A DNA stretch of 64,000 nucleotides from Candidatus Enterousia sp. Lineage in GTDB: Bacteria > Pseudomonadota > Alphaproteobacteria > Rs-D84. The stretch covers positions 210 to 64,209 of the forward strand of contig JAZRJE010000011.1 in the NCBI GenBank assembly GCA_045645645.1, read 5' to 3'. Below the pieces are notes generated by a model. That model saw nothing but the letters and a program-made list of their open reading frames with translations. It did not search any database and had not been told where the DNA came from. Positions 1-32,200 of this stretch are shown here, in pieces (the first letter of the stretch is position 1; the number at the start of each line of letters is the position of its first letter). A program made the position numbers and the translations under genes.

Positions 1-42
1 CGTTTTTAGGTAGAACTGTGTCAAATTCGGGGCCCCATTAAT

Positions 43-74
43 AAATCCTGTCGAAAGATAGGATTTTTATTTTG
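43..74 (+). terminator. Rho-independent terminator (hairpin with GAAA loop, then a T-run) for a gene upstream of the window
   Basis: aaatcctgtc-gaaa-gataggattt stem followed by ttttatttt. Confidence 0.55.
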
Positions 75-80
75 GGCGGT

Positions 81-506
81 TCATAAGTGAATAATTTCTG
101 CGTCTGGAATCATGCTTGCAATGTATTCTGCGGCTAAGCGTCTGTGGCACATATCTGCGTTTTTTTCTGTACATAACAGGCAGATGTGGTCCAAAGATTC
201 CAGTGGTACATTCGCCAATGGTTGGCGTTCTGCAATTGTTTTACGATAAATCGGCTCAGCATCTGCCCAGACCATCTGTTTATCCTTGAACGATGTCAGC
301 ATTTCAAATGTTGGTGCAAATTCTGGATGATACTCATAACGTTCGCCAAGAACCGATGCCAGATTCTCCCCACTGTAATACGGAACATATTTACTGACCC
401 GCCACAGGCGAATGTCCCACACGCAATTTATTCTTGCAGCATCTAAAACCTCCAGAAACACTTCTGGCTTTTTTCCACTAAAACCAATTGTGAATATCTT
501 TGTCAT
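81..506 (-). CDS. DUF488 family protein
   Basis: 141 aa. N-terminal 'IFTIGFSGK' and 'DIRLWRVSK' plus C-terminal 'LLCTEKNADMCHRRLAAEYI' match the DUF488 pattern (TIGHS...DVR...LLCxE...CHR). Confidence 0.7.
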   Translation of the reverse strand: MTKIFTIGFSGKKPEVFLEVLDAARINCVWDIRLWRVSKYVPYYSGENLASVLGERYEYHPEFAPTFEMLTSFKDKQMVWADAEPIYRKTIAERQPLANVPLESLDHICLLCTEKNADMCHRRLAAEYIASMIPDAEIIHL

Positions 507-553
507 ATCAATACAAGAATAGATATTCGCGCATCAAATAGCAATGATTTTTC

Positions 554-582
554 TTGAATTTTTATCGTTTTTGTGATATCAT
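554..582 (+). promoter_or_regulatory. Sigma70-like promoter with extended -10 (TTGAAT, 17 nt spacer, TGaTATCAT)
   Basis: ttgaat at 554-559, 17-nt spacer, tg at 574-575, tatcat at 577-582. Confidence 0.4.
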
Positions 583-597
583 GCACAGCAACAGCAA

Positions 598-621
598 TAA
601 CGGCGATATGCCGTTTTTTTT
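598..621 (+). terminator. Intrinsic terminator A in the leader of the GH108 gene
   Basis: aacggc-gatat-gccgtt stem followed by T8. Confidence 0.55.
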
Positions 622-624
622 ATT

Positions 625-647
625 GCCCGCAATCGCGGGCATTTTTT
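625..647 (+). terminator. Intrinsic terminator B in the leader of the GH108 gene
   Basis: gcccgc-aatc-gcgggc stem (6 GC-rich bp) followed by aTTTTTT. Confidence 0.65.
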
Positions 648-684
648 ATGAAGAAAAACAGGCTTTGAAACGAAGGAAAATGAT

Positions 685-1197
685 ATGAATTTTGAACAGG
701 CATACAATAAACTAAAAGAGCACGAAGGCGGTTATACAAATGGTAAAAATCAAAAAAAAGACGAACCTACAAACATGGGAATCAAACAAAGTACACTGGA
801 CAGATATTCTGCCAAGTATCCAGAGAAAAATCTTCCGTCCGATGTAAAGCATTTAACAGCCACGCAAGCCAAAGAAATCTATAAATACGAATACTGGGAC
901 AATACAAAAATCCCTGAAATCAAAAATGACAGAATACGCGATGCTGTGTTTGATATGAATGTAATGGGTGGTGCAGGAAAAACGGTTCAACGTGCATTAA
1001 ATTCTTTCTTGGATGCAAACTTAGTTGTTGATGGTGCAATAGGCAGCAAAACAATTAAATCTATAAATACGATTGCCGATAGCAAGGTTAACGAATTTAT
1101 GAAGATACTAAAATCTGAAAGGTTGAATTATTTAAGGGGCACAGCGAACTGGGAAACAGCAAAAAACGGCTGGGCAAAACGAACCAACAAATACTAA
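685..1197 (+). CDS. GH108-type lysozyme with C-terminal PG_binding_3 domain (phage endolysin-like)
   Basis: 170 aa. N-terminal 'HEGGYTN...MGI' resembles the GH108 catalytic EGGY motif. 'VVDGAIGSKTIKSIN' resembles the PG_binding_3 motif. An RBS 'aaggaaaa' precedes the ATG. Confidence 0.7.
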   Translation: MNFEQAYNKLKEHEGGYTNGKNQKKDEPTNMGIKQSTLDRYSAKYPEKNLPSDVKHLTATQAKEIYKYEYWDNTKIPEIKNDRIRDAVFDMNVMGGAGKTVQRALNSFLDANLVVDGAIGSKTIKSINTIADSKVNEFMKILKSERLNYLRGTANWETAKNGWAKRTNKY

Positions 1198-1285
1198 TTT
1201 TTGTCTAATCCTGTCGCCTTCAAGTGTTGCGTGCATGCCACAGAAGACACTAACTGAGTCTGCATTACTAAAATGCAGCCTCAGT

Positions 1286-1525
1286 TTATCTTCTGATTCC
1301 GTTTGAAACAATATGCCAACAGGAATAAAATATTTCTGTATCTGTTTCTCTATCATATTGATATTTTTTACCTTTGTATTCTGCGTTATTACCTGTTATT
1401 TCAATCTTGCCTTCAACATCACAAATATGTAAGTCGTACCAAGATTGCAACTTTAAAATGCATGATGAATCATCACAGTTAAAAATTTCCATTACCCCAT
1501 CAAAAATGGCGTCTTGATTATTCAA
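1286..1525 (-). CDS. Hypothetical protein (phage cluster)
   Basis: 79-aa ORF at the distal end of the minus-strand phage operon. No motif recognised. Confidence 0.35.
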   Translation of the reverse strand: MNNQDAIFDGVMEIFNCDDSSCILKLQSWYDLHICDVEGKIEITGNNAEYKGKKYQYDRETDTEIFYSCWHIVSNGIRR

Positions 1526-1566
1526 AATTCATTTGTCAGCCCCAATTTTTTTTGGTGGGGGAATTG

Positions 1567-2026: not shown

Positions 2027-3256
2027 TTATACCCCTGTCAAAGCTTCGGATGCGACCATTTGTGCAATTGGCGCCACATATTTTAATTCTGCGTCACTGT
2101 GCAATGAAATTTCATCTATCAAACCACGACGCGATAAAATTTGCAGTCCTCGTTCGCACATTGGACGAATAAATTCGTGCAATAGACGTCCATATGTGGC
2201 ACCTAATATACGCATCATGTCTGAATTACGTGCCATAATTTCAGTTGCCGTCATTTCTTTTTCACTTAACAGGCCCAGCCTGTCCGCCAATAATGTATGA
2301 CGTATCCGTTCACGCAAATCTTTTAAAACAATTTGTGAAACATCAAAATTAGCACCACTGGTCAATGGTGTCAGACCAGATGAACCAACCGCCTTTGGTA
2401 TAATTGCCCCAGGAGTCAAATTGATGTTGTTTAGATTTATTACACCATCATCATCGGCCTGCCATATACCAGACACTGCAATTGTTGCATTTTTTAAAAC
2501 CAATTCTACAACCTTATTCGCAGTTTTAATATCTGGTAATGCGCGCAGAACTGGACTGAAACCATATGTTTCACCACTGGTAACAGACCATCGAAATATC
2601 AAGTACGGATTAGTGTCAAATGTACCACGACCAACAATATTGTTTTCTATGTCACCGTCAACATCCAGCCATGCAATAAAATCTGTCCCAACTAAGCTTT
2701 GAACTAGCCTAATTGGTGTATCTGGATCTTGTTTTATAACATCACGCATATTTTTTGGGGGTGTCCATGTCGGATATTTTTTCAATGCATCACGCAATGG
2801 CATTGATGTTGTATGAAATACGGCATTCGGTAAAATCGCAATATCTGACATGGGTATTGCTGTAAATGAAAACGCAGATGATGCGCCAATCGGATTTTCA
2901 GCCATAAACAGACATGCTGTCCCCAGAACAACTAAGTCCATATAGCACTGATGAATTGTTGTATAAAAGTTTGAGTCATTCAAATGTGAACGCAAAACAG
3001 ACGTTGCATATGTGGCGTCTGGGGATTTATCGCTTTCTGCAACCAGATTTAGCCATAACGATTCTGGTGGTGTCAAAAGTGTGTATAACGATGCCGCCAG
3101 ATTATCAACTGCATCAGATGCGGTGGCATCAAATAATGTAGCACATTCTTCTTCGATCGTTGGGACAGTGTAACGTCGTGCTTCATCCCAGCGACGCATC
3201 CATGGACTGCGCATATCTAGCGCACGTTTATATAATTGTTGCAAATTTTGTTGCAT
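2027..3256 (-). CDS. Phage portal (head-to-tail connector, T7 gp8-like)
   Basis: 409 aa. N-terminal 'LYKRALDMRSPWMRRWDEARRYTVPT...DNLAASLYTLLTPPESLW' parallels T7 gp8 'YERLKNDRAPYETRAQNCAQYTIPS...NNLASKLMLALFP'. Confidence 0.7.
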   Translation of the reverse strand: MQQNLQQLYKRALDMRSPWMRRWDEARRYTVPTIEEECATLFDATASDAVDNLAASLYTLLTPPESLWLNLVAESDKSPDATYATSVLRSHLNDSNFYTTIHQCYMDLVVLGTACLFMAENPIGASSAFSFTAIPMSDIAILPNAVFHTTSMPLRDALKKYPTWTPPKNMRDVIKQDPDTPIRLVQSLVGTDFIAWLDVDGDIENNIVGRGTFDTNPYLIFRWSVTSGETYGFSPVLRALPDIKTANKVVELVLKNATIAVSGIWQADDDGVINLNNINLTPGAIIPKAVGSSGLTPLTSGANFDVSQIVLKDLRERIRHTLLADRLGLLSEKEMTATEIMARNSDMMRILGATYGRLLHEFIRPMCERGLQILSRRGLIDEISLHSDAELKYVAPIAQMVASEALTGV

Positions 3257-3287: not shown

Positions 3288-4136
3288 TTAGATTAAGAAA
3301 TTCGTATTTGCTTGAAATATTTTATTCTGACGCCCCACAGAATGTACGGCAATTGGACCCTGGGCAATCGCACCTGCGACGGCATCCAATCCATCATCAT
3401 GTCCAATTCCACCCAGTGGTGACCAACCCAGCATTTCTGATATAAATGGAGTCTGCTGAATTCGTGTGTGTGCATATAAATGACCAGATGTTAATATTGG
3501 TTCAATTGCATCTAGGATTCTGTCTGATTTATTTTTATTGTTTGTTATTTTATTAACACAAATATTTTCACCATGACGATTGGCAACATCACGCATAATT
3601 TCTGGCAATGCGTTCCCCAGACCATTTGTTTCAATCGTTATACGACGACTTTTATGGCGCAACATAAAATCTAGTACCATTTCGCACTGACTGTTTAGTG
3701 GATGCGTATCATTATCTGATACATGCATGTACATAACATCATCTATAAAAATATTATGATTTTTGTCATCTCGATACAGACATACACATACACTGTCATC
3801 TGATTTGCGACGCCCGCTGGACGGATCCCAATAAAAAGAGACACCCGTTATCAGATGTGGCCCCAGACGAGCACTGTGCCAGTCAAATATATCTTCATAA
3901 ATGTGTATTTGCCCTGGATCTAGCCTTATGCGTTCTGGTGGCACAAAATCTAGCATCATTTGTGATGAAAAATGTCTAGGCCCAACAATTTGTCTTATTT
4001 GATTGATTTTATCTAATGGAAAAAGCTCGGGCCACACAGGATTTCCACAACTGTCAACAATCGGTATCTTTAATATGCGATAACCAGATAAAAAAGGCGT
4101 TGAAAAACTAAAATTTTTATATACTATATCAGACAT
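3288..4136 (-). CDS. Terminase large subunit, C-terminal nuclease half (split gene)
   Basis: RNaseH-like nuclease acidic motifs 'FYWDPSSG', 'ITIETNGLG' and 'GHDDGLDAVAGAI'. Start taken at MSDIVYKNF (ATG 4136). An upstream in-frame ATG at 4211 would overlap dnaB. Confidence 0.7.
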   Translation of the reverse strand: MSDIVYKNFSFSTPFLSGYRILKIPIVDSCGNPVWPELFPLDKINQIRQIVGPRHFSSQMMLDFVPPERIRLDPGQIHIYEDIFDWHSARLGPHLITGVSFYWDPSSGRRKSDDSVCVCLYRDDKNHNIFIDDVMYMHVSDNDTHPLNSQCEMVLDFMLRHKSRRITIETNGLGNALPEIMRDVANRHGENICVNKITNNKNKSDRILDAIEPILTSGHLYAHTRIQQTPFISEMLGWSPLGGIGHDDGLDAVAGAIAQGPIAVHSVGRQNKIFQANTNFLI

Positions 4137-5694
4137 GGACTTTACTCCCAAAACTTTACCGACAAATCTGGAAGCAGAACAAGCAGTTCTGGCGGCGGTT
4201 TTAATGAACAATCGTGCACTGGAACGCGTATCTGAATTCTTAACTCATGAACACTTTTCGCATCCAGCACATCAGGAAATTTATAAGCTGGCAGAACGAC
4301 AATTCGCAGCAGGAATACCATTTGATATTATTACCGCAAAGACTTATTTGGAACAGCAAGGTGTCCTGGAATCCGTTGGCGGGGTCGAATATTTAAGCCA
4401 ACTGTCCAGCGCTGGCGCAACCGTTGTAAATGTCGAACAATATGGACGAATCGTTTATGAGAACGCACAAAGACGCGATTTGATTAATCTGGCACAATCT
4501 ATTATGGACAGTGCTTTTGTTGAGGACATGGACAATCCTGTTAATCGACAAATCGAAGTAGCGGAACAAAGACTGTTTGATATGGCAACTACAGGTACAT
4601 CAGAACGTGATGTCGTATCAATAGCAACAGCGTTACAAGCCGCCCTGAGAGAAGCTGAAACTGCATACAAAGCGGACGGGCAACTGTCTGGGTTGACGAC
4701 TGGATTGACTGCACTGGACAGATCTATTAGTGGCCTGCATCATTCAGACCTTATTATTATTGCAGGACGTCCAGCGATGGGAAAAACAACGCTTGCGATG
4801 AACATCGCATTTAATGCTGCGAATGCTATTCATTATGGTATGGCAAATAAAAACTATAAGGGGGCTGTCGTATTCTTTAGTCTTGAAATGTCACATTCAC
4901 AGCTGGCAGCACGTGTATTATCATCACAGTCAAAGGTCCCTGCATCAGCCATGCGCGAAGGTAACTTGACAGATGAAGATATGTTAAAAATGACGCAGTA
5001 TGCGGATGCAATCAGCAAGATTCCGCTGTGCATTGATGATACACCAGGTATGTCTGTTCCAATGATGCGAACACGTGCAAGAAGATTGGCACGAAAATAT
5101 GGTGGTATCGCATTAATTGTTGTGGATTATCTGCAACTAATGACATCCCCAGGGGGAAAACGTAGTGATAATCGTGTACAAGAAATTTCAGAAATAACGC
5201 GTGGATTAAAGATGCTGGCTAAGGAATTAGATGTTCCTGTTATTGCATTGTCACAGCTGTCACGTAGCGTTGAACAACGTGATGATAAACGACCACAGTT
5301 GGCAGATTTGCGTGAATCTGGTTCTATTGAACAAGACGCTGACATTGTTATGTTCACATATCGCGAAGAATACTATCTGGCAAACAGGAATCCGTCTGAA
5401 CGTATTTCAAACACAACAAATTCATCAATGGTTGAATCATGGCAAAAACGCTATGAACAATCACGCGGTAAGGCTGACATAATCATCGGGAAAAATCGAC
5501 ATGGACGACCAGAAACCGTTCGTACCGCGTTCTTGGGGGATTATAGCCTGTTTGATAACTTGCCAGATGAATTTGAAATACGTGGCGAAACAACAACTAG
5601 TGTAGTGGCCAGTGCACCAATCCCACTAGACGGTTCAGAATTTGCACCAACGCCAATTGATATTGATGCTATCCCAGACGATATGCCGTTATAA
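4135..5694 (+). CDS. dnaB: Replicative DNA helicase DnaB
   Basis: 519 aa. N-terminal 'NLEAEQAVLAAVLMNN', Walker A 'GRPAMGKTTLAMN', 'VDYLQLM', 'ALSQLSR' and 'IGKNRHGRPETV'. Confidence 0.9.
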   Translation: MDFTPKTLPTNLEAEQAVLAAVLMNNRALERVSEFLTHEHFSHPAHQEIYKLAERQFAAGIPFDIITAKTYLEQQGVLESVGGVEYLSQLSSAGATVVNVEQYGRIVYENAQRRDLINLAQSIMDSAFVEDMDNPVNRQIEVAEQRLFDMATTGTSERDVVSIATALQAALREAETAYKADGQLSGLTTGLTALDRSISGLHHSDLIIIAGRPAMGKTTLAMNIAFNAANAIHYGMANKNYKGAVVFFSLEMSHSQLAARVLSSQSKVPASAMREGNLTDEDMLKMTQYADAISKIPLCIDDTPGMSVPMMRTRARRLARKYGGIALIVVDYLQLMTSPGGKRSDNRVQEISEITRGLKMLAKELDVPVIALSQLSRSVEQRDDKRPQLADLRESGSIEQDADIVMFTYREEYYLANRNPSERISNTTNSSMVESWQKRYEQSRGKADIIIGKNRHGRPETVRTAFLGDYSLFDNLPDEFEIRGETTTSVVASAPIPLDGSEFAPTPIDIDAIPDDMPL

Positions 5695-5768
5695 TTATTT
5701 TACTTGCCATTGTTTTAAAAATTGACTATTATTTTGTCAAGATTGTATTTTTTTAAGGGGTTTTTGCA

Positions 5769-6776
5769 ATGGCTCAAGAAGAAATTATTTTTCCAAATAA
5801 TATCAGAAATATTCGTTTAGCAAATGGAATGAAAATGACAGAACTGGCACGTCGTGCGGGGTTATCTTTGTCTGCAGTTTCCAAAATTGAAAAGGGCGTG
5901 CGACGCCTGAACCAAAAACAGTTACTGAACATATGTAACATATTGGGTTGCAAGTTATCTGATATTTTCATTAAGGAATCTGATGACGTTGCAGAACAAT
6001 GGCAAACAGAAATCAAACGTCGTTTGAATGACAACGAAGATGGTGGTCTGAAAATTTTTGGCAGTGGATTGCGTAAAATTCGTCAGCAAGCTGGTAAAAC
6101 CATCGCTCAGGCTGCAAAAGACGCGGGGATGACACTTTCTGTATATCACAAGATTGAAGTTGGTCAACGTGAAATATATGAAGATGAACTTGAACCATTG
6201 GCACGCTCTTTTGCTTTAAGTGTAGAAAATATATTTAATAAAATTGCCACTATGTACAAAAGCGGTGAATTAAACAAACAAATTAATAAAGTTAAAGAAC
6301 GTGTAAAATCTGTATTAGAACCAGGCAATCCTTTATCCAGCATTGATATGCATGGCGGATTGTATGGTGCAAAATTATATGACAGTGCACGCAAAAAATT
6401 AGTTCCTGTGTTTGGAACACCTGCAGGCAAAGCAATTAGCTTCAGAAAATCTGATAAAACCATGATTGTTGCACCAATGTCACTAGAAGGACACAGCGGA
6501 ATTTATGCAGTAGTGCCAAATACAAAACGTTTGGGTGGCATGATCCCTGAGAAGTCGTATTTATTCGTAGATGTTGACGCACCTGTGTCGCCAGGAGACA
6601 TGGCCGTTTGTATAGATGCTGATTTTGCCGCATTGGATTCTGAAACCACCGTATCTGCACAGATTGTAAGTGTACGCCAAGATACCAAGGGAAAAATTTA
6701 TGGACAAATCGTCGGCCCAGATGAAAAAATAACACCACAAACAATGCATAAAATTGTAATGGTCGTTATGGAATAA
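5769..6776 (+). CDS. Dual XRE-type HTH regulator with C-terminal S24 (LexA/CI)-like domain lacking the catalytic Ser
   Basis: Two HTH_XRE units ('IRNIRLANGMKMTELARRAGLSLSAVSKIEKG' and 'LRKIRQQAGKTIAQAAKDAGMTLSVYHKIEVG'). The C-terminus 'GGMIPEKSYLFVDVDAPVSPGDMAVC' aligns to the S24 'GDSMxP...GD.v.v' motif with Ser replaced by Gly. Confidence 0.6.
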   Translation: MAQEEIIFPNNIRNIRLANGMKMTELARRAGLSLSAVSKIEKGVRRLNQKQLLNICNILGCKLSDIFIKESDDVAEQWQTEIKRRLNDNEDGGLKIFGSGLRKIRQQAGKTIAQAAKDAGMTLSVYHKIEVGQREIYEDELEPLARSFALSVENIFNKIATMYKSGELNKQINKVKERVKSVLEPGNPLSSIDMHGGLYGAKLYDSARKKLVPVFGTPAGKAISFRKSDKTMIVAPMSLEGHSGIYAVVPNTKRLGGMIPEKSYLFVDVDAPVSPGDMAVCIDADFAALDSETTVSAQIVSVRQDTKGKIYGQIVGPDEKITPQTMHKIVMVVME

Positions 6777-6805
6777 AAACATCACCCGCAGGAGAGAGAT
6801 CTGAG

Positions 6806-7444
6806 ATGAAAGCAAAAGCCAGTAAGACCGCACATAGATTATTAAATTTGTACCGCCAAGAGCACGTCATAATTGGGGGTTGGGCAGCTATTAATCCAAT
6901 TTTTATTAACGATGCAGACACATATGTCATAGAAGAATTAAAGGATATGCCAACGGGTAAGGCTTTGATACAGCATATTGAAAACCTGCGTAGTGGCAAG
7001 ACACCGATGGATTCAATAGAACCAGAACTGCTACCGTATGGGGGCATGATGACAGAATCTGTATTAACAAATGTAACCCTTACGGGCCCAGAAATAAATG
7101 AACTGCGGCATGCATTGGATGCATTTACACCTGATCAGGACGGTCTGAGGATGATTTCTGGTCTAAATGCGGTTAATAAATTCGGTGACGAATGGCAATC
7201 TGCAATATACAGCGCTTTATCATCGGACCCTGTTCTGTTACATAAATGGGAAGTTGTAACAAAAACATATCGGGCTTATCAGCTGTGGGATAACGCAGCA
7301 GAAATTGTCAGCCAACCAATAGACGATCGCATACGTGCAGAAATCCAAGCCGACATGCCAGAATATGAAACGTATTTGCCAATGTTTGGTGAGGCAGGCA
7401 AAGAACTATTGATTAAGTTGCGCACGTTTATAAGTTCTATCTAG
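6806..7444 (+). CDS. Hypothetical protein (third gene of the cassette inside the terminase gene)
   Basis: 212-aa ORF preceded by RBS 'aggagagag'. No motif recognised. Confidence 0.5.
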   Translation: MKAKASKTAHRLLNLYRQEHVIIGGWAAINPIFINDADTYVIEELKDMPTGKALIQHIENLRSGKTPMDSIEPELLPYGGMMTESVLTNVTLTGPEINELRHALDAFTPDQDGLRMISGLNAVNKFGDEWQSAIYSALSSDPVLLHKWEVVTKTYRAYQLWDNAAEIVSQPIDDRIRAEIQADMPEYETYLPMFGEAGKELLIKLRTFISSI

Positions 7445-8091
7445 TTAACACTTGTGCGATAGATTGTATCCATGGTATGTGGCGTACCGATATAAATCAT
7501 GGTTCCTGTTGGCGATAAAATAAAATCTAATTCGCGTAAACGTTCACGTAGATTTTCACGTTTTTGGGCAGTGTTGGATGTATTTGGTACTTCTACATCG
7601 TCACAAATGATTAAATCTGAACGCATGCCTGTTATATTGCCATGTACCCCTTGACATATAACAGAAGGTTCACGAACACCAATTGGGCGATTTACCGTAA
7701 TACGACCAGATGACCATTCTTTGCGTGACGTCGGAATCAAATCGACACACCAAGGATGGTTTTCTAATATATGTCGAATATGATTTACCATACGTGTTGC
7801 TAGCCCCGTCTCAGCGGATAGTATTAATATCCTTGTTTGAGGACGTAGATACAATGTACATGCAGCAAAAACACCAACAACTGTTGATTTACCAGAATGC
7901 CGAAATGCCATTAATAATCCACGATGCGTATCGTCATTCATAATATCGACCAAAAACCGCATTATTTCTTGATGATGCTGGGGAGTATTTAACCCCAGCA
8001 CCCTATTCCAAGCATCTAAAAAATTACAATATTCTGTATACATCGTATTGTTATATGTTGCATATGTTTTTCTAGCCGACAAGATCGTCAA
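7441..8091 (-). CDS. Terminase large subunit, N-terminal ATPase half (split gene)
   Basis: Walker A 'FRHSGKSTVV', Walker B 'LIICDDVEV' and coupling motif 'IGTPH'. The ORF stops at 7441, directly against the cassette. Confidence 0.75.
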   Translation of the reverse strand: MTILSARKTYATYNNTMYTEYCNFLDAWNRVLGLNTPQHHQEIMRFLVDIMNDDTHRGLLMAFRHSGKSTVVGVFAACTLYLRPQTRILILSAETGLATRMVNHIRHILENHPWCVDLIPTSRKEWSSGRITVNRPIGVREPSVICQGVHGNITGMRSDLIICDDVEVPNTSNTAQKRENLRERLRELDFILSPTGTMIYIGTPHTMDTIYRTSVN

Positions 8092-8419
8092 ATCGACTTA
8101 GAATAGACTTTAGTAAATTTGGCTTAGAAGTACGTGTCGACTTTAATTTTTGCAAATTATAGGTGCGCTTTTTATCGTATGGTTCTTCTGTTTCTGATTT
8201 CAGTCTTGTCAACACTGCACCTGCGGTTTGACCATGCGAAGAAACACCAGAAGCACCATATTTTGCACGTTGTGTCGCCAATGTTTTTTTTACCAGATTT
8301 GTTTTAGCTTGTTCATCGGACACCATTTGTTTCAAAATTTCCTGACGTTCTGATTTGTTCTTTTTTTTATTGTCTTTGTAATCTAAAATTTCTGTGACAT
8401 CTGATACTAGCTGTGCCAT
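8072..8419 (-). CDS. Hypothetical basic protein. It is a small-terminase candidate by position only.
   Basis: 115 aa, Lys-rich, overlaps the TerL-N start by 20 nt. No motif recognised. Confidence 0.4.
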   Translation of the reverse strand: MAQLVSDVTEILDYKDNKKKNKSERQEILKQMVSDEQAKTNLVKKTLATQRAKYGASGVSSHGQTAGAVLTRLKSETEEPYDKKRTYNLQKLKSTRTSKPNLLKSILSRFDDLVG

Positions 8420-8451: not shown

Positions 8452-10170
8452 CTAGATAGAATAAGTCCCAACTATATTTACGGACAAAATTGTTGTCGAA
8501 TAAGGTTCATCTCCATGCAGTGTCCAAACAGGGACAGTCATGTCGTATGACGAACCAAGAATGTTTACAGATACATCACCAGAAAAACCAACCGAAGATT
8601 CAGAATAAACTTCATTCGGCAAACGAATTCTGTTTTTATTTATAAATATTGATTTTGTATTCCATATCCGCGCTGTAATTTTTTTGATTCTGGTGTGCTT
8701 GATATTATGACCTGATGCACGTAAAGGCAATGCAGATGCACACCATGAAATATTATATTTATTTGAATCCTGTTTTGCTGCAGACGAAAATCTTTCCAAT
8801 GAAAATATACCTTCGCGCTCAACAATAACATACGTTATATCATTTACGACACAGACAGATTTAAAATTACCATGTGTACTGTATCGTCCCCAGGCATTGA
8901 TACCCAGTGATGAATTCTTATTTAAAACAGCCATTGTACCATCCGACATGGTGACGTACAACTTGTGCCAGGTCGCATTATACGCAATATCAACAGGTGT
9001 CGTCATCATATGCTTAGAAAAAGCACATAAATCTGTGGCATTATATGATTCCCCCAGTTCATCAAGTGTCAATTCGCGTATATCCTGTAAATTATTTGAT
9101 ACAAATACTGTTGCGCCCTCGATACGCTGAGGTGGCAAATATGTTTCAGCAAAGGATCCCACTGATGTATGTTGCTTTATATTTACTGACGATGGAGTCA
9201 GTGGCTTATTAGAAACAGCCCATTCACCAACAGTTGTTAATATCTGTAAATTATCACCACTGACAACAGTACATATTTGTTGACGTTGCTGTGATAACAA
9301 TGTCAGGAAAATAGCTTCGTCGTCAAGACCTGTACCAACATCAAAATTTTTGTGTTGCGCAACCTTTGACATCCAAACCCCTGCAGGATATGACCGCGAA
9401 CCACCAAACACAAGTCTATCTTGGTGAAATGTAATACTGCATGGCCAACCACGTACTGTACTGAATGCCGCTTCGGCCCAATCTGTTACTGGTTTATTTG
9501 GTAAGGTATAACCACCATTAGTATATGCCAGAACTTGCGTGGGGCTGATATATTTATACACAACCCATTGTCTGTCAGCTAGCAATAATTCTGTACCAAC
9601 ATATTGTGTATTCCAAAAATCGCGACTTGTTGTAAAAGTAGCATAGTTATTACCTTGGTCGCTGCCTGATACTGTAATAGAAACATCTTGGACATCGTCA
9701 TATCGCATGAATGGCATATGTATATTCATATTACTGTCATCACGATCAAAAACAAAGTTGTTTAATACAAAGCCTGATGATGTTTTTTTTAAAATCTTTG
9801 GCTGTACATCTGGATGTACAAAAACCATTGAATCAAAACGTTGTGCATATTGTAATTTTGATAAGCTTTCTTGTGACCATGATGTTAGCAAACTTGCTAA
9901 GCGTACGCCTTCTGGAGAATACACCCATATATGCCCATCAGAAATTGCTAAAATATAATTTTCTGTTTCACTAACAGAAAAAGGTATTAATCGCGCACTA
10001 CTAGATAATGTCGCAAGCTGTATTAAACCATAACGACGTGTCATTGCACCGCTGTCTAAGACATCTAGGTTTTCCATATAAGATAAACCGTCTATATTAT
10101 CATGCGCGTAAAATTCTGGCGCGACTTCGCCATATGAAAAAGAGTTTTGGTTTTTTGAAAAGTTTGCCAT
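8452..10170 (-). CDS. Tail tubular protein B-like (T7 gp12-like)
   Basis: 572 aa. N-terminal 'FSYGEVAPEFYAHDNIDGLSYMENLDVLDSGAMTRRYGL' parallels the gp12 pattern 'GGISQQPDILRYPDQG...ETEGLQKRPPL'. It lies directly after the gp11-like gene. Confidence 0.5.
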   Translation of the reverse strand: MANFSKNQNSFSYGEVAPEFYAHDNIDGLSYMENLDVLDSGAMTRRYGLIQLATLSSSARLIPFSVSETENYILAISDGHIWVYSPEGVRLASLLTSWSQESLSKLQYAQRFDSMVFVHPDVQPKILKKTSSGFVLNNFVFDRDDSNMNIHMPFMRYDDVQDVSITVSGSDQGNNYATFTTSRDFWNTQYVGTELLLADRQWVVYKYISPTQVLAYTNGGYTLPNKPVTDWAEAAFSTVRGWPCSITFHQDRLVFGGSRSYPAGVWMSKVAQHKNFDVGTGLDDEAIFLTLLSQQRQQICTVVSGDNLQILTTVGEWAVSNKPLTPSSVNIKQHTSVGSFAETYLPPQRIEGATVFVSNNLQDIRELTLDELGESYNATDLCAFSKHMMTTPVDIAYNATWHKLYVTMSDGTMAVLNKNSSLGINAWGRYSTHGNFKSVCVVNDITYVIVEREGIFSLERFSSAAKQDSNKYNISWCASALPLRASGHNIKHTRIKKITARIWNTKSIFINKNRIRLPNEVYSESSVGFSGDVSVNILGSSYDMTVPVWTLHGDEPYSTTILSVNIVGTYSI

Positions 10171-10191: not shown

Positions 10192-10710
10192 TTAAAAACG
10201 TGTGTTTATCAGTGAAAAATTTTCTATACAGCTACTGGGGGCGGTTGCACTGTCTATAAATTTCGCCGATTGTAATTCTGTTTCATAAAGTGCTGCCAAC
10301 ATTCTAAAGATAGTCTGATCGCCCAACAATGGAACACAAAATTCTAGCGCTAATTTTGTTGCAGCTAATGAAATAAAATAACCTGGAAAACATTCTGTTT
10401 CGACACGACAAACAGCTAATATTTTTATTTTTTTTGCAGAAGAAAGTATTTTGTTTCCGCACACTTGACCATTTGATTTTAATATGCGTAATACATCCGC
10501 AGGTATGATAAATTCACCGCTTGTGTTTGCGACCAGTTCTAATTCCTTGGTTGCAAATCGCCATGGATGCAAAGACAACAATGCATTAACAACAGGATCA
10601 AACAAGGTACGTGCTAATTGAGATGATGCATTATCATCAGTTAATGACTGAATCGGTTTTTCACCGATTTTTAACAGCGCCATCGAACATAAATCTATTT
10701 TTGTAAGCAT
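10192..10710 (-). CDS. Tail tubular protein A / adaptor-like (T7 gp11-like)
   Basis: 172 aa. 'CSMALLKIGEKPIQSLTDDNASSQLARTLF...HPWRFA' parallels gp11 '[31 protein letters not shown]...RGWTFN'. Confidence 0.55.
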   Translation of the reverse strand: MLTKIDLCSMALLKIGEKPIQSLTDDNASSQLARTLFDPVVNALLSLHPWRFATKELELVANTSGEFIIPADVLRILKSNGQVCGNKILSSAKKIKILAVCRVETECFPGYFISLAATKLALEFCVPLLGDQTIFRMLAALYETELQSAKFIDSATAPSSCIENFSLINTRF

Positions 10711-10725
10711 TTTTCCACCATGATT

Positions 10726-10763
10726 TATTAAAAAATAATGGTGACGCAGAATACGTCACCATT
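10726..10763 (-). terminator. Intrinsic terminator after the capsid and 77-aa genes
   Basis: aatggtgacg/cgtcaccatt 10-bp stem. On the minus strand it is followed by aTTTTTT. Confidence 0.55.
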
Positions 10764-10789: not shown

Positions 10790-11023
10790 TTATGCCAATG
10801 CACCAGTGGTTACATTGTTAGCAGTTATGTTGATTTTCTTGATTGATGTATTGTCTGAGGCATTAATAATTACAACATCCCCGATATTCATCAATGTTTT
10901 TACATCATTAAAATATCCTGTGGCTGTAATTGTTGCCATGGTTTCAGAAACAGATGCATAATGCCATAATGTAAAACCATTTGCGTATGCTATTACTGAC
11001 AAATTTTTATTTTGAAATGCCAT
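10790..11023 (-). CDS. Small phage head-module protein (hypothetical)
   Basis: 77-aa ORF 33 nt downstream of the capsid gene with RBS 'aaaggaaaa'. No motif recognised. Confidence 0.45.
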   Translation of the reverse strand: MAFQNKNLSVIAYANGFTLWHYASVSETMATITATGYFNDVKTLMNIGDVVIINASDNTSIKKINITANNVTTGALA

Positions 11024-11056: not shown

Positions 11057-11884
11057 TTAAGCAACTTGTGCATCTGTACATTTGACACGAACAATGCCAT
11101 CATTATCGATCAATACCGCCCCTTGGGACATGCTGTTGCTGATAAAGTGGGCCGCACGTTCGCCATGCCATGAAATATCAGACTTAACCTCTTGACCACA
11201 CGCATGACCGATGCTGGATGCATGATAAATAAAACAATCGCGCTTATCGTCTGTTACTGGCAAGCCATTATGCAAAACCCATGTGATACCCAACCATTTT
11301 TTAGATTCAAAACCATTTACTAATGGATTGGAATCACCAACATAGTCTGATGACACAAATTCATCCATCGACAACAATTCATTCCATTGACGCACACCAA
11401 CAACAGCGAATCTGCGACCATCATCTGGCACGTCATTGCTATTCAGAATTTCAACAGCAGATAAAATTAAATCTTTTGTTAATGATGTAGAATAATCACC
11501 AACAGATAATGTCGAATTATTCATTGCGTTAATAATTAACTCATCTGTCTTACGCCCCAATGCATATGCACCAGCTGATGCAACCACACGACGCTCATCA
11601 ATATTTGTTTTTAATTCATCTAAGGCATCAACCCAATCACCAGCATAATAATCTTGCAATAAACATTCTACTGGTTCATGGTTTAAATTCATCACAGGAA
11701 CAATCCCATGACGCGATTTTGTACTGGCAATACCCTTACCTACTTTCTGAAAAGTCGTTGAAGCACCAACAACACCAGACTTACTGCGTATTGTTGAGCG
11801 CAATTTTGTACCCATCTGTTGATAGGCCAAATGAACATCGGCTTCGAACTGTTTTACGAAAACCTGATCAATTGAAATTGACAT
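11057..11884 (-). CDS. Major capsid protein (T7 gp10-like)
   Basis: 275 aa. 'VFVKQFEADVHLAYQQ...RSKSGVVGASTTFQKVG' parallels gp10 'LFLKVFGGEVLTAFAR...RSISSGKSAQFPVLG'. It follows the scaffold gene. Confidence 0.6.
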   Translation of the reverse strand: MSISIDQVFVKQFEADVHLAYQQMGTKLRSTIRSKSGVVGASTTFQKVGKGIASTKSRHGIVPVMNLNHEPVECLLQDYYAGDWVDALDELKTNIDERRVVASAGAYALGRKTDELIINAMNNSTLSVGDYSTSLTKDLILSAVEILNSNDVPDDGRRFAVVGVRQWNELLSMDEFVSSDYVGDSNPLVNGFESKKWLGITWVLHNGLPVTDDKRDCFIYHASSIGHACGQEVKSDISWHGERAAHFISNSMSQGAVLIDNDGIVRVKCTDAQVA

Positions 11885-12097: not shown

Positions 12098-12352
12098 TTA
12101 TTTCTTTTTTGCGCATGCTTTTTTTGCAACTGGTTTCGCAACTACTTTTTTTGCGCATGCTTTTTTTGCAACTGGTTTCACAGCTACTTTTTTTGCAGGT
12201 GCTTTTTTGGCAACTGGTTTCACAACTACTTTTTTTGCAGGTGCTTTTTTTGCGACTGGTTTCGCAACTACTTTTTTTGCAGGTGCTTTTTTTGCAACTG
12301 GTTTCGCAGCTACTTTTTTTGCAGCTTTCTTTTTAAACAAACTAAATACCAT
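12098..12352 (-). CDS. Histone H1-like Lys/Ala/Pro-repeat protein (84 aa)
   Basis: MVFSLFKKKAA, then 5 x 14-aa units 'KKV(A/V)(A/V)KPVAKKA(P/C)A', then KKK. A strong SD (aaggagag) precedes ATG 12352. Confidence 0.7.
   Translation of the reverse strand: MVFSLFKKKAAKKVAAKPVAKKAPAKKVVAKPVAKKAPAKKVVVKPVAKKAPAKKVAVKPVAKKACAKKVVAKPVAKKACAKKK
12110..12319. repeat. 5 x 42-bp in-frame tandem repeat (coding)
   Basis: Near-identical 42-bp units visible directly in the sequence. They encode the KKVxxKPVAKKAxA unit. Confidence 0.9.
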
Positions 12353-12459
12353 TCTTTCTCTCCTTACATCATTTGTTATACGAACAAATTCTTTTTTGTT
12401 CTTACTGTGTATTTTATCTGAATCTAACAAAATAGTAAAGAAGAAAGTGATTTTTTTTC

Positions 12460-13137
12460 TTATGAATATAATTTTTTAAATCCATTTTCTATTTTACGAA
12501 CATATTCTGGATCATTGTCACGCCAATATTTTGGGTCACGCATCATACGACGTAAATCTGAATCTGTTAAATTTTTTGTTTCATTTTTTTCTGTTTGAAC
12601 ACTTGGTTCCATCGACTGCATCATTTTATAAACACTTTGAATTCCCTGGGCTGAGGAGCATAATTCTTCAAACGCATCTGATGGTAAAAATTTTTCTCCG
12701 AATGTTTTTATAGCTAACAATGCATCATTCATTTTTTCTTTTGATCCAAAAAAGTTTTTTAATTCATTAATTGCATTTGATTCTTTTTGCACTGCAAATA
12801 ATTCTGACACAACAGGTGATAAATAATCCGTTGCAATAGAATAAATTTTTTCAACCTGTGTTGTTGTCAATCCGATTTCATGAAATTTTTTTCGCAAATT
12901 TTCATCATCAAATACTTCATGATTTGGATATTCTTCCCCACTTTCTGGAACACCAATTGCACGATTAAAACGCTGCTTTACAGCATCGTCACTGTCTGCT
13001 GTGGGCACCGTTATCATTGTTCCAATTTTACGTTCTAGTTCTGAATAAGATTTCATTAAAGCATCGGCATTTAACGTTCCATCTGTATTTAAAAATTTTT
13101 CTGGAATTTTATCCATTTTCTTGTCCTTTGTTTTCAT
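12460..13137 (-). CDS. Capsid scaffolding protein (T7 gp9-like)
   Basis: C-terminal 'LRRMMRDPKYWRDNDPEYVRKIENGF' parallels gp9 'MIKAMSDPRYRTDANYRRQVEQKV'. It is acidic and helical. Start is uncertain (ATG 13137 or 13116). The longer ORF to 13290 is hydrophobic and overlaps the upstream gene. Confidence 0.6.
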   Translation of the reverse strand: MKTKDKKMDKIPEKFLNTDGTLNADALMKSYSELERKIGTMITVPTADSDDAVKQRFNRAIGVPESGEEYPNHEVFDDENLRKKFHEIGLTTTQVEKIYSIATDYLSPVVSELFAVQKESNAINELKNFFGSKEKMNDALLAIKTFGEKFLPSDAFEELCSSAQGIQSVYKMMQSMEPSVQTEKNETKNLTDSDLRRMMRDPKYWRDNDPEYVRKIENGFKKLYS

Positions 13138-13320: not shown

Positions 13321-13731
13321 TTATAAGTAAAACAACAAATCATCTATATCCAATATATAACCACGTGAACGTGCCCAATCTGGCATTACATCACTATGGT
13401 GAAAACAGGTTGCACCACGACACATATCTGGCAATGTACCCATAATCATGCGACCTGCAACACGTAAACACATTTGAAACCCACGACAAGTTGGCAAAAC
13501 ATTCAACAACGAATGTCTGGCAGAACTGGCGTCTAAAGAATTAAATAAATCTGGGTTATTTATAATACTACAAATATGTTGGCCTGTTAATTGTGACTTG
13601 TTTTGTATCATTGATGTCATTGCTTCCACTGCGGCTAATGATGAAGCCGATGTTTCTGCATAGACAATGCGTGCAATCTGATACAAAAGTTTTTTAGACG
13701 CATCTGGGTTTCTTATTAGTTTCAAATCCAT
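13321..13731 (-). CDS. Cell wall hydrolase, SleB/CwlJ (Hydrolase_2)-like
   Basis: 136 aa. 'IARIVYAETS...AVEAMTSMIQNK...NNPDLFNS' and 'GATCFHHSDVMPDWA' fit the family pattern (ARviYaE...NR...qF...AthFh...PsWa). Confidence 0.6.
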   Translation of the reverse strand: MDLKLIRNPDASKKLLYQIARIVYAETSASSLAAVEAMTSMIQNKSQLTGQHICSIINNPDLFNSLDASSARHSLLNVLPTCRGFQMCLRVAGRMIMGTLPDMCRGATCFHHSDVMPDWARSRGYILDIDDLLFYL

Positions 13732-13754
13732 ATCAAACTACCCCCAAAAAATTT

Positions 13755-13785
13755 AAAAAAAAAGTCGCCATTAAGGCGACTTTTA
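13755..13785. terminator. Bidirectional intrinsic terminator separating birA from the phage cluster
   Basis: agtcgcc-attaa-ggcgact stem with A9 upstream and T4 downstream (T9 on the minus strand). Confidence 0.6.
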
Positions 13786-13891
13786 AAGAAAAAAAAATCC
13801 CAACAAAAATGTTGAGATAGAACTTCCGCTTGTTACGCCATGTATTGTATCAGAAAATACCACGAAAGTCAAGCAAATAATTTTCAACCAA

Positions 13892-14587
13892 TCACTTATT
13901 TATATCTGGCATAGTTATTTCATCACCATAAACCAATAAATATCCATTTCCACGACGTAAAATTAATGCACCGTTTTCATTAATACCAATCAATTCTGCA
14001 GATGCACCATGATATATTACATCTTTATTTAAACCAACAACCAAATCTAACCATCGATTACGTACAAGTGCAAAATCAGTATTACGCCATACATCCATAT
14101 GATGCATTAAACGCCCCAATAAATCATTCGCAGATACATCTGTATACTTGTCTAGTTTTGTAGTCTGGTATTCTGCAACAGTAGGATTTGTTTTTACATT
14201 TATTCCAATACCAACAATTACATAATCACGACAATATTCAATTAAAATTCCACTAACTTTTTTATTATCTATCAATATGTCATTAGGCCATTTAATATTT
14301 GGCCTGATACCAAATGAAATTAGAGTTTCTGCAACTGCTACAGCAACTGCATACGACAATCGCCCATCACGAACATCTGCATCATATATAAAACTAACAT
14401 ATAAATTGCCATGATGAGAGATCCATCGACGTTTATATCGTCCACGCCCCGCACTTTGCGCCAATGCAACAACCGCTGTTTTATCAGCAGCTTTACCATG
14501 CACAACCATATCATAAGCTACGTCTTGGGTGCTAGGAATTTTATCATACGAAAAAACCTTATACCCTGCCAAGTTGATAAACCCCAT
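13892..14587 (-). CDS. birA: Biotin--[acetyl-CoA-carboxylase] ligase (group I, no HTH)
   Basis: 231 aa. 'QSAGRGRYKRRWIS' matches the GRGRxGRxW motif, and 'KWPNDILIDNKKVSGILIE' is present. Confidence 0.85.
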   Translation of the reverse strand: MGFINLAGYKVFSYDKIPSTQDVAYDMVVHGKAADKTAVVALAQSAGRGRYKRRWISHHGNLYVSFIYDADVRDGRLSYAVAVAVAETLISFGIRPNIKWPNDILIDNKKVSGILIEYCRDYVIVGIGINVKTNPTVAEYQTTKLDKYTDVSANDLLGRLMHHMDVWRNTDFALVRNRWLDLVVGLNKDVIYHGASAELIGINENGALILRRGNGYLLVYGDEITMPDINK

Positions 14588-15014
14588 TATTATTTATGAT
14601 AAATTCGCGCCCAAACATCTTGCGTAGCTGATATATAGCCGTATCGACGGCATGTGTAGATGCACTAGGGGCATACCCCAGCGCCACCTTTAAATCATTT
14701 AAACACATGCCACCAGATTGAAATAACGCAACAACAATCTGAGCTTGTACCCATGATAAAGATACAGATCGTTTAAATATCTGATCCAATATATGTTGGT
14801 TGTCCTGAGCCTTTATTATTAAAGCCTTTAATCCTATAGCTGAAATTGGTAACGATATATCCAGGTCATCTAAATTCAAATCCGTTACACAAGGAGTGTC
14901 CAAAACAACCGCATTCAAATCAGTCAATATTTGACGCCACACTGTATCTGATGAAAATATACGAATACCTGACAACATATATGCACAATACCTCATACAA
15001 TACGAATTGTCCAA
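14559..15014 (-). CDS. OmpR/PhoB-type winged-helix DNA-binding protein with a short non-canonical N-terminal domain
   Basis: C-terminal 'LSWVQAQIVVALFQ...LKVALGY...THAVDTAIYQLRKMFGREFIINNNGVYQLG' fits the Trans_reg_C pattern. Start codon is uncertain (TTG 15014, ATG 14996 or ATG 14978). Confidence 0.5.
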   Translation of the reverse strand: MDNSYCMRYCAYMLSGIRIFSSDTVWRQILTDLNAVVLDTPCVTDLNLDDLDISLPISAIGLKALIIKAQDNQHILDQIFKRSVSLSWVQAQIVVALFQSGGMCLNDLKVALGYAPSASTHAVDTAIYQLRKMFGREFIINNNGVYQLGRV

Positions 15015-15074: not shown

Positions 15075-15320
15075 TTATTCACGTGCTGCTTCTTGGTTAT
15101 CAATGAATTTGGTAAAATCTTGAATTTTTGCACCCGTAGATGACAAAATCTTTGAAATACTGTTGGTAGATGGCCATCGTGGTTGACCTTCCTTGGACCA
15201 TCGTTTACTTCTATTAAACGTTGTGGGATCTAAACCACTGCATTTCGCCAAACCAGAACAAGACATTCCATGTTCGGTTGCAAAGCGTTCTATTGCCCGC
15301 CATACATCTTCGTGGGTCAT
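15075..15320 (-). CDS. CI/Cro-like HTH DNA-binding protein (81 aa)
   Basis: 'WRAIERFATEHGMSCSGLAKCSGLDPTTFNRSKR' is typical of phage-repressor N-terminal domains. Confidence 0.55.
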   Translation of the reverse strand: MTHEDVWRAIERFATEHGMSCSGLAKCSGLDPTTFNRSKRWSKEGQPRWPSTNSISKILSSTGAKIQDFTKFIDNQEAARE

Positions 15321-32171: not shown

Positions 32172-32200
32172 TTGACCATAAATAGTTGGAGGCATCAAAT

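Follow-up and report, generated by a model that had tools for sequence, protein, structure and literature searches.

A terminase large subunit encoded in two pieces around dnaB in a putative podovirus-derived gene transfer agent-like locus of gut Alphaproteobacteria

We wanted to understand how a phage-type DNA packaging enzyme can be encoded on either side of a gene for a replicative DNA helicase. The locus that raises this question lies in a 64,000-nt stretch of DNA from Candidatus Enterousia sp. (GCA_045645645.1, contig JAZRJE010000011.1, positions 210 to 64,209, forward strand), hereafter the window. In it, two open reading frames (ORFs) with the motifs of a terminase large subunit (TerL), here called TerL_N and TerL_C, are separated by a 3.3-kb cassette of three genes on the opposite strand, of which the first is dnaB. 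The original prediction, made from the sequence of the window, had left three options: a cassette insertion that inactivated the terminase of a prophage, a functional two-piece terminase, or a domesticated particle locus into which a replication gene has been locked. For this, we read the 64 kb of this genome and, in relatives, stretches no longer than about 21.5 kb, flanks of 10 kb per side included. The locus is probably a vertically inherited, domesticated, podovirus-derived particle locus resembling a gene transfer agent (GTA), with a terminase in two pieces and with the host-type genes dnaB and birA interleaved among the particle genes. The conservation of both halves favours the second option, while the fixed site, the lack of an integrase and purifying selection speak for the third.

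TerL_N (7441-8091, minus strand) and TerL_C (3288-4136, minus strand) are colinear, and profile searches bear out that they are the halves of one T7-type TerL, PHROG 38 and NF033889 (termin_lrg_T7) being matched at successive positions. TerL_N matches Pfam Terminase_6N, positions 269-459 of PHROG 38 and positions 2-190 of 500 of NF033889, the latter with 227 bits against a cut-off of 150. TerL_C matches Terminase-T7_RNaseH-like (PF22530, 33.1 bits, cut-off 27), positions 484-701 of PHROG 38 and positions 232-500 of NF033889; by itself it scores 104.9 bits against NF033889, which is under the whole-protein cut-off of 150. PHROG also holds two half-length terminase families, phrog_4758 and phrog_5573, which match one half each. 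The motifs first read from the letters (RHSGKST, LIICDDVE and IGTPH for the ATPase, FYWDPSSG, ITIETNG and HDDGLDAV for the nuclease) are all present and invariant in orthologues: GKST, DDVE and GTPH (Walker A, Walker B and motif III) do not vary across seven species, nor does the catalytic D/E/D of the nuclease motifs WDPS, E(T/V)NG and HDDG(L/I)DA across nine loci. When the halves are joined (482 aa), they form a single alignment with intact T7-like TerLs over 97% of the length at about 27% identity, and they align with four intact metagenomic TerLs (470-495 aa) over 95-98% of the length at 40-44% identity. No residue is missing at the joint, and the split form is longer by about 13 residues, which lie between ...GTPHTxDTIY and PFLxGY.... 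For the joined halves, an AlphaFold2 model (mean predicted local distance difference test, pLDDT, of 73) retrieved full-length TerL structures with Foldseek (8dgc_E at 7.9e-25; HK97, T4 and Sf6 at about 1e-9).

The position of the break had to be corrected. It had been placed at the boundary between ATPase and nuclease, but it lies inside the ATPase domain, about 8 residues past motif III. Terminase_6N (215 positions) is matched only to position 114, equivalent to residue 158 of the joined sequence, and the T7 model NF033889 is cut at about position 190-230 of 500, while the Terminase_6C/nuclease profile begins at about residue 102 of TerL_C. Given this early end of the N-half and late start of the nuclease profile, TerL_C therefore carries the remainder of the ATPase domain (about 70-100 aa) plus the RNaseH-like nuclease. 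The start of TerL_N is ambiguous between ATG 8043 (200 aa) and 8091; several orthologues begin at ATG 8043, which is probably the start used.

We then looked at the conservation of this arrangement. In a genome scan with DnaB as the query (one genome per species, best 80 matches taken), eight metagenome-assembled genomes (MAGs) of uncultured Alphaproteobacteria, from deer, yak rumen and other metagenomes, were found at 68-85% identity, the next matches dropping to 49%. Six of the eight (L001-L004, L007, L008) have the identical order from orf85/portal to birA, including the split and the cassette, as far as their contigs reach. An IMG/VR scan with an orf212 alignment gave 79 further loci, with orf212 identity down to 45% and, over the reach of each contig, the same order. 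The architecture does not vary among 86 loci: the terminase is nowhere a single polypeptide of about 470-590 aa, its two ORFs being 3.3 kb apart in all 86, and both halves accompany portal and capsid genes in 85 of the 86 syntenic loci. The neighbours birA, orf151 and HTH81, described below, are present in every locus that reaches them. As first noted for the window, neither half is frameshifted (TerL_N is intact in 76/76 and TerL_C in 55/55 complete IMG/VR copies, and both in seven genomes), with protein identity among copies as low as 52%; more than 100 TerL_C clusters (279-288 aa) were obtained at 90% identity in protein searches. Across seven species, synonymous divergence (pS) is about 0.74 and saturated, whereas nonsynonymous divergence (pN) is 0.17 for TerL_N, 0.28 for TerL_C, 0.14 for DnaB and 0.10 for the capsid protein; pN/pS of the terminase halves is 0.23-0.37. 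TerL_C has a mean identity of 59% against 74% for TerL_N. These values point to a fixed, old and selected architecture, neither a recent insertion nor a mobile prophage. As both halves are intact in all 86 related loci, the enzyme probably works as two separate proteins.

The split terminase stands at the centre of a conserved block of about 13.7 kb (15320 to 1567) with podovirus-type content: scaffold, capsid, tail tube A and B, terminase, portal, a Bbp19-like protein and a hydrolase. Searches with Pfam, PHROG and NCBIfam found no integrase, polymerase or primase in the block, where dnaB is the sole replication gene. The hallmarks of a temperate prophage (integrase, att sites, a replication module of its own, variable presence) are lacking, and the block sits at the same site in all relatives. 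It shows genomic features of GTAs, namely a phage-derived structural and packaging cluster devoid of integrase and phage replication genes, a fixed position, co-divergence with host genes and purifying selection.

The possibility that two ORFs without a cassette were the ancestral state found no support, as the nearest cassette-free relatives have an unsplit TerL. These relatives (L082-L087) are compact clusters of about 10 kb, with a TerL of 479-495 aa, arranged in the order portal, Bbp19, scaffold, capsid, tubeA, tubeB, TerL and Hydrolase_2; they lie next to genes of the host, either the S10 operon or an RND pump, and are accompanied by an S24 repressor but lack an integrase. Their portal, capsid and TerL proteins are 42-44%, 60-65% and 40-44% identical to those of the window's element. 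In L082 (9715-10014) and L085 (9702-9998), an ORF of 98-99 aa overlapping the TerL start is a candidate small terminase (TerS), and three small ORFs precede the portal gene; for none of these ORFs was a homologue detectable in the window's element. Two human faecal virome records named 'Bacteriophage sp.' were also looked at. One, MT838907 (L088), is an intact-order element of the same family (capsid 65% identical, GC content 51%), and the other, MT835812 (L089), is the chromosomal dnaB region of an alphaproteobacterium with a GC content of 53%, host-type DNA in a virus-like-particle preparation.

How is dnaB expressed from within a phage gene? Three plus-strand genes lie between the halves, as profile searches confirmed: dnaB (4135-5694), a regulator gene (5769-6776) and orf212 (6806-7444). 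The junctions have no spacer, and their coordinates were found to be as first given: CATG at 4134-4137 joins the start codons of TerL_C and dnaB, and CTAG at 7441-7444 joins the stop codons of orf212 and TerL_N. The intervening 3.3 kb run exactly from the dnaB promoter through the orf212 stop codon. The original prediction saw no room for a conventional promoter in front of dnaB; however, a conserved sigma-70-type promoter, TTGAAA-N16-TACTAT (4100-4127, plus strand), is embedded in the first 13 codons of TerL_C, corresponding to the reverse complement of about codons 2-13. Promoter-like matches in the region are at chance level (45 found vs 51.7 expected), and only promoters conserved across species were used here. 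Across 67 loci, the dnaB promoter reads TTGAAA-N16-TAC(T/C)AT in 43 and TTGAAT-N16-TAATCT in 24, and the N-terminal peptide of TerL_C, MSDIVYKNFSFST or MSIRLNENFNNSI, switches with the promoter variant. Third-codon-position conservation reaches 0.87 in TerL_C codons 1-22, against a background of 0.42, and this is the only excess block among seven genes tested. A similar promoter stands upstream of dnaB in two loci, L005 and L006, where TerL_C is not upstream. The distance from the -10 element to the dnaB ATG is 7 nt in 59 loci and 25 nt in 8, so near that we infer a leaderless, or nearly leaderless, mRNA. On the opposite strand, the TerL_C ORF begins at the ATG of the shared CATG in 66/66 loci, each time with a Shine-Dalgarno sequence (GGAG or GGGG) 8-9 nt upstream that is formed by dnaB codons Thr4-Pro5, and the third base of Thr4 is T or C only. 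With the dnaB promoter in TerL_C and the TerL_C Shine-Dalgarno sequence in dnaB, the start signals of each gene are therefore written inside the other. Apart from this, the end of TerL_N (window 7441-7460) reads DTIYRT and the start of TerL_C (4095-4136) DIVYKN, a resemblance that could stem from duplication of six codons where the insertion took place or could be a chance effect of the -10 box.

The particle operon also has a conserved start. Its leader (13735-13880, minus strand), delimited by scanning and by cross-species conservation, holds a promoter and two tandem terminators ahead of the ATG of orf136, the first gene. The promoter, TTGACT-N17-TACAAT with an extended TG (13872-13844, minus strand), is followed by two hairpins with U-runs, at 13818-13797 and 13784-13760. 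A promoter consensus, cTTGACTTT-N14-TGATAnnnT, and both hairpins are kept in ten loci, an eleventh (L164) having a divergent promoter and one hairpin only; the consensus fold of five sequences has compensatory changes at 10 of 19 pairs. Because a promoter followed by tandem terminators is typical of operons controlled by antitermination, the layout suggests such control, with a short leader RNA. No antiterminator was identified in the window's element. By position alone, orf212 is a candidate. It belongs to a family of 1306 members and has no Pfam, PHROG or NCBIfam match; its AlphaFold2 model is all-helical (pLDDT 79.5), with no structural match in PDB or BFVD, no Q-like fold and no link to ORFs of the intact-TerL elements. 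The remaining cassette gene, between dnaB and orf212, encodes a regulator of 335 aa that had been called dual-HTH and S24-like. The two helix-turn-helix (HTH) domains are clear (HTH_3 7.5e-22 over two stretches), but the S24-like C-terminus is weak: hhalign against an S24 repressor gave a probability of 51%, and the Ser nucleophile is replaced by Arg. This C-terminal domain is probably non-catalytic. The regulator gene has its own promoter, TTGCCA-N17-TATTAT, and a palindrome, TTGAC-N9-GTCAA (window 5722-5740), overlaps its -10 element as a candidate auto-regulatory operator; this stretch of promoter and palindrome (5704-5740, plus strand) is conserved in 5/7 species.

Altogether, these observations can be arranged into a model. 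At the base of the clade, a break in a surface loop of the ATPase domain, shortly past motif III, would have divided a T7-type TerL gene, and the two polypeptides would reassemble non-covalently into a working packaging ATPase/nuclease. DnaB would serve as the replicative helicase of the cell, transcribable from its own conserved promoter in the first TerL_C codons. The operon would be switched on by antitermination at the leader, and the modified polymerase would get to TerL_C, portal and orf85 over a run of about 12 kb, of which 3.3 kb, across the cassette, are antisense. A bolder and less probable version is that the head-on cassette acts as a commitment switch across the only dnaB of the cell and the regulator, with a true two-chain terminase motor. 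An antiterminated polymerase would have to cross dnaB and the regulator gene antisense to reach TerL_C, portal and orf85, and the supply of helicase and of repressor would therefore be shut down together; in growing cells, conversely, the active transcription of dnaB would guard against leakiness of the distal genes.

Several points weigh against the domesticated GTA-like locus with a two-piece terminase. Its functional claims rest wholly on sequence conservation, the element being known from its genes. A break within the ATPase fold is mechanistically demanding, and in the AlphaFold2 model pLDDT falls below 50 for residues 189-269 around the joint, where the packing of the pieces is not readable. 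A small terminase was not recognised in the window's element, nor was a homologue of the 98-99 aa candidate TerS of L082 and L085 detectable there. Third-position conservation gave no conserved promoter for TerL_C and portal inside dnaB, so their route of transcription is conjecture. Two loci, L005 and L006, keep an intact TerL_C with no neighbouring N-half. Finally, a second dnaB is possible elsewhere, the reading having covered the window and the stretches around the relatives' loci.

This last point concerns the ownership of DnaB. It could be a second helicase belonging to the element, over-replicating the locus before packaging as in the run-off replication of Bartonella, with the real dnaB elsewhere. 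Bartonella indeed ties a phage-derived helicase and an origin to its GTA (PMC2697382, PMC3610622), phage DnaB-like helicases are common (PHROG 19 is matched at 1.4e-110), and the regulator gene and orf212 are not beside dnaB in 72 outgroup loci. However, the protein (DnaB_C 1.8e-100 in Pfam) passes the cellular equivalog models NF006606 (603 bits, cut-off 540) and TIGR00665 (503 bits, cut-off 385) and stays under the cut-off of the phage_DnaB model TIGR03600 (417 bits vs 499). Alignment confirmed the insertion before the IIGKxRHG motif that had been seen as typical of chromosomal alphaproteobacterial DnaB. The nearest relatives are chromosomal DnaBs: in a neighbour-joining tree, the proteins of these loci form a monophyletic clade inside alphaproteobacterial DnaB, with internal branching that agrees with other genes, and the best 'phage' match (47%) is an unverified faecal virome contig with a GC content of 53%. 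In addition, dnaB is kept in L006 despite the deletion of particle genes and stands beside recG in L005. No second dnaB match came from the eight related genomes among the best 80 of the scan; as the scan works from exact 8-residue patterns, this is a weak argument. Taken together, an element-owned helicase is unlikely, and a DnaB of alphaproteobacterial cellular type serving the cell fits the domesticated locus better. An exact-protein look-up of DnaB gave zero matches. A canonical dnaB 'empty site' was also sought in the outgroup dnaB contexts and was dropped, their neighbours being too variable.

The two loci with a lone C-half could mean that TerL_C has a role of its own. The halves might be kept for separate jobs, TerL_C being for example a stand-alone RNaseH/RuvC-like nuclease acting with the adjoining replication and repair genes, and the particle needing no conventional terminase. 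L006 (1-5700) is degraded: a deletion runs from the 3' portion of the capsid gene, of which 94 aa remain, into TerL_N, which keeps its final 30 aa only; the tail genes and portal are lost as well, and dnaB is inverted. The cassette has stayed, and so has TerL_C, which is intact, catalytic residues included, and lies beside dnaB. In L005 (1-4800), which holds TerL_C, recG and dnaB, recG stands between the other two. The faster evolution of TerL_C relative to TerL_N, given above, would also agree with distinct roles. Against this, both halves co-occur with portal and capsid in all but one of the syntenic loci, the L005 contig is too short to show its remaining content, and the roughly 100 residues of the ATPase part of TerL_C are conserved with intact TerLs and would be useless to a stand-alone nuclease. 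We regard separate jobs as quite improbable and retain the two-piece terminase.

Could an intact terminase be rebuilt in producer cells, by excision of the cassette (like skin in sigK), RNA trans-splicing or protein splicing? Excision does restore split genes in cells that differentiate terminally, dnaB could be dispensable to a producer cell bound for lysis, and the similarity of DTIYRT and DIVYKN could be the relic of a duplication. Yet no recombinase family was found among the three cassette proteins, no direct repeats flank the cassette at the two junctions, and of RNA families, introns among them, the window yielded a tRNA only. Intein blocks are lacking as well: the last residue of the N-half comes 3-7 positions past DTIY, and promoter-encoded residues open the C-half. 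Each half is, moreover, equipped with a stop or start and a Shine-Dalgarno sequence of its own. Rebuilding is in our view very unlikely. Hardly credible at all is the first option of the original prediction, a decaying prophage remnant whose terminase was killed by the cassette and whose halves are pseudogene fragments still open by chance, for although the gene is physically interrupted, integrase and phage replication module are lacking and L006 shows that the locus can decay, the 76 and 55 complete IMG/VR copies and seven genomes are all intact down to 52% protein identity, purifying selection (pN/pS 0.23-0.37) acts at saturated synonymous divergence among loci that are not near-identical strains, all catalytic residues are invariant, the TerL_C Shine-Dalgarno sequence stands in 66/66 loci, and an inactivated prophage is dismissed because the architecture is conserved.

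The other genes of the block agree with a particle operon. On the minus strand the order is hydrolase, scaffold, Lys-rich repeat protein, capsid, orf77, tubeA, tubeB, orf115, TerL_N, the cassette on the opposite strand, TerL_C, portal, Bbp19-like protein and orf85. The first gene, orf136 (13321-13731, minus strand), encodes a SleB-type cell-wall hydrolase, a candidate endolysin (Pfam Hydrolase_2 1.8e-4, short of the gathering score), and has a homologue in the Hydrolase_2 gene found 3' of TerL in L082 and L085. It is followed, all on the minus strand, by the scaffolding protein of the T7 gp9 family (12460-13137; Phage_T7_Capsid 2.4e-11), whose start at 13137 agrees with a 225-aa orthologue in L007, and by a Lys/Ala-rich, histone-H1-like repeat protein of uncertain start (12098-12430; HC2 2.6e-7, below cut-off). 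This ORF is built of 5.2 copies of a 42-nt unit, has a 145-aa orthologue at the same position in L007 and may encode a DNA-condensing or internal particle protein. The major capsid protein (11057-11884; Phage_capsid_2 5.2e-71) is the best-conserved of the block, with a mean identity of 86%; its nearest phage relatives have genomes of 32-35 kb. The small conserved orf77 (10790-11023), 3' of the capsid gene, is syntenic in all loci. Between orf77 and the tail genes, a strong intrinsic terminator with a 12-bp stem and a T-run (10737-10763, minus strand) directly follows capsid and orf77, which we take to be the position of the T-phi terminator of T7 after gene 10. The tail genes encode tubular protein A, the adaptor (10192-10710; Pfam Tube 1.4e-5, PHROG 394 1.2e-31), and tubular protein B, the nozzle (8452-10170; PHROG 376 1.1e-77). 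Upstream of TerL_N, orf115 (8072-8419) is conserved and syntenic in 70 IMG/VR loci, with weak similarity to an ORF 3' of tubeB in L085. Beyond TerL_C, and still on the minus strand, come portal (2027-3256; Head-tail_con 6.9e-82), the small Bbp19-like protein (1828-2025; PF25181 1.4e-11) and the small orf85 (1567-1824), with a hydrophobic segment, which is the last conserved gene, synteny ending to its left.

At the other edge, the operon adjoins host genes. birA, for biotin-protein ligase (13892-14587, minus strand; TIGR00121 140.6 bits, cut-off 83), is a housekeeping gene that adjoins orf136 in every locus reaching that far. Its start is overlapped by the conserved orf151 (14559-15014, minus strand), which is syntenic at 41-54% identity in nine loci and has no Pfam or NCBIfam match. 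The right edge of the block is HTH81 (15075-15320, minus strand), a small Cro/CI-type HTH protein, 85-92% identical in L002, L003, L007, L114, L145 and L148 and 40% identical to the N-terminal HTH of the S24 repressor adjoining the intact-TerL element L082. As HTH81 and orf151 lie upstream of birA within the conserved block, birA is therefore, like dnaB, sandwiched between element-type genes. The rest of the window contains chromosomal genes (birA itself, a DacA-like carboxypeptidase gene, recR, rsmA, lspA, yidC, parC, map and holA). To the left of orf85 (window 1-1560), where synteny is broken, we noted a GH108 muramidase with a peptidoglycan-binding domain (685-1197, plus strand) and a DUF488 protein (81-506, minus strand). 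Elsewhere, a 556-aa ORF (32186-33856, plus strand) matches the retron Eco8 effector and OLD/RecF-type ATPases with its N-terminus (4.3e-25, well below the family cut-off) and is a possible defence gene.

If this reading is true, a podovirus-type GTA-like element of gut Alphaproteobacteria joins a very short list, and a natural viral packaging ATPase exists as two chains cut within the ATPase domain. Such a two-chain motor would bear directly on models that require the parts for ATPase and nuclease to move together as a single hinged protein. The interleaving of an essential-type dnaB (and of birA) with particle genes is an unusually clear case of mutual constraint between opposite-strand genes, and it would tie replication to particle production in a way that can be tested. 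That the locus is widespread is indicated by the numbers of TerL_C clusters and of orf212 relatives.

In literature searches, neither this element nor a terminase divided by dnaB or another replication gene was found described. Naturally split or interrupted phage genes are known, such as the T4 topoisomerase genes for gp39 and gp60 and terminase genes with introns, inteins or homing-endonuclease genes. What separates the parts there is a selfish element or a short spacer, and splicing mends many of these genes, whereas here the intervening DNA consists of 3.3 kb of opposite-strand, cellular-type genes with no splicing signals. The leader resembles the lambda PR'-tR' region, where a strong promoter is followed by terminators before a long late operon under antitermination by Q, and also the GTA of Caulobacter, which is reportedly controlled by GafYZ (cited in PMC12946183); the promoter-then-terminator layout is the same, with no antiterminator identified so far in the window's element.

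Like RcGTA, the Caulobacter GTA and BaGTA, the window's element is a chromosomally fixed, phage-derived head-tail-terminase cluster, vertically inherited, under purifying selection and without integrase or replication module. These GTAs are siphovirus- or lambda-like, with no sequence relationship to the T7/BPP-1-like set found here (Head-tail_con, Tube, Phage_T7_Capsid, Bbp19), and their terminases are single genes, in contrast to the split TerL. Particles and random packaging have been shown for these systems, while the window's element is known from genes alone. BaGTA is functionally tied to a helicase-containing run-off replication locus, but the Bartonella helicase is Twinkle/T7-gp4-like and phage-derived (PMC2697382, PMC3610622), whereas the helicase here is a cellular DnaB. 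Identity with the BaGTA/run-off replication system, to which GC content and the helicase had pointed, was considered and rejected, that system being a lambda-like GTA with a separate Twinkle-like helicase locus and the relatives found here being uncultured gut MAGs. In habitat and predicted morphology, the closest described analogue is FpGTA of Faecalibacterium prausnitzii, a gut GTA-like operon of about 10.5 kb with terminase, portal, scaffold and capsid genes and a predicted podovirus-like morphology, called the first podovirus-like GTA-like element by its authors (PMC12946183). It differs in belonging to Firmicutes, in its recognisable TerS and unsplit TerL, and in that packaging was shown by long-read sequencing (PMC12946183); this comparison is by description, not by sequence.

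Related by sequence are L082-L087 and MT838907, which share with the window's element the same protein families, the lack of an integrase and a place beside host genes, in about 10 kb. They differ in having TerL as one gene, portal first and TerL-hydrolase last, with no dnaB, regulator gene or orf212 inside. They also have a candidate TerS (98-99 aa) and a neighbouring S24 repressor, and their chromosomal sites are different. At the level of the enzyme itself, the joined halves resemble T7 gp19 and the TerL of PhiV-1 (PDB 8DGC) in Walker A and B, motif III and the acidic residues of the RNaseH-like domain, and they cover NF033889 from end to end; unlike these, the terminase of the window is encoded as two polypeptides, with about 13 extra residues at the joint.

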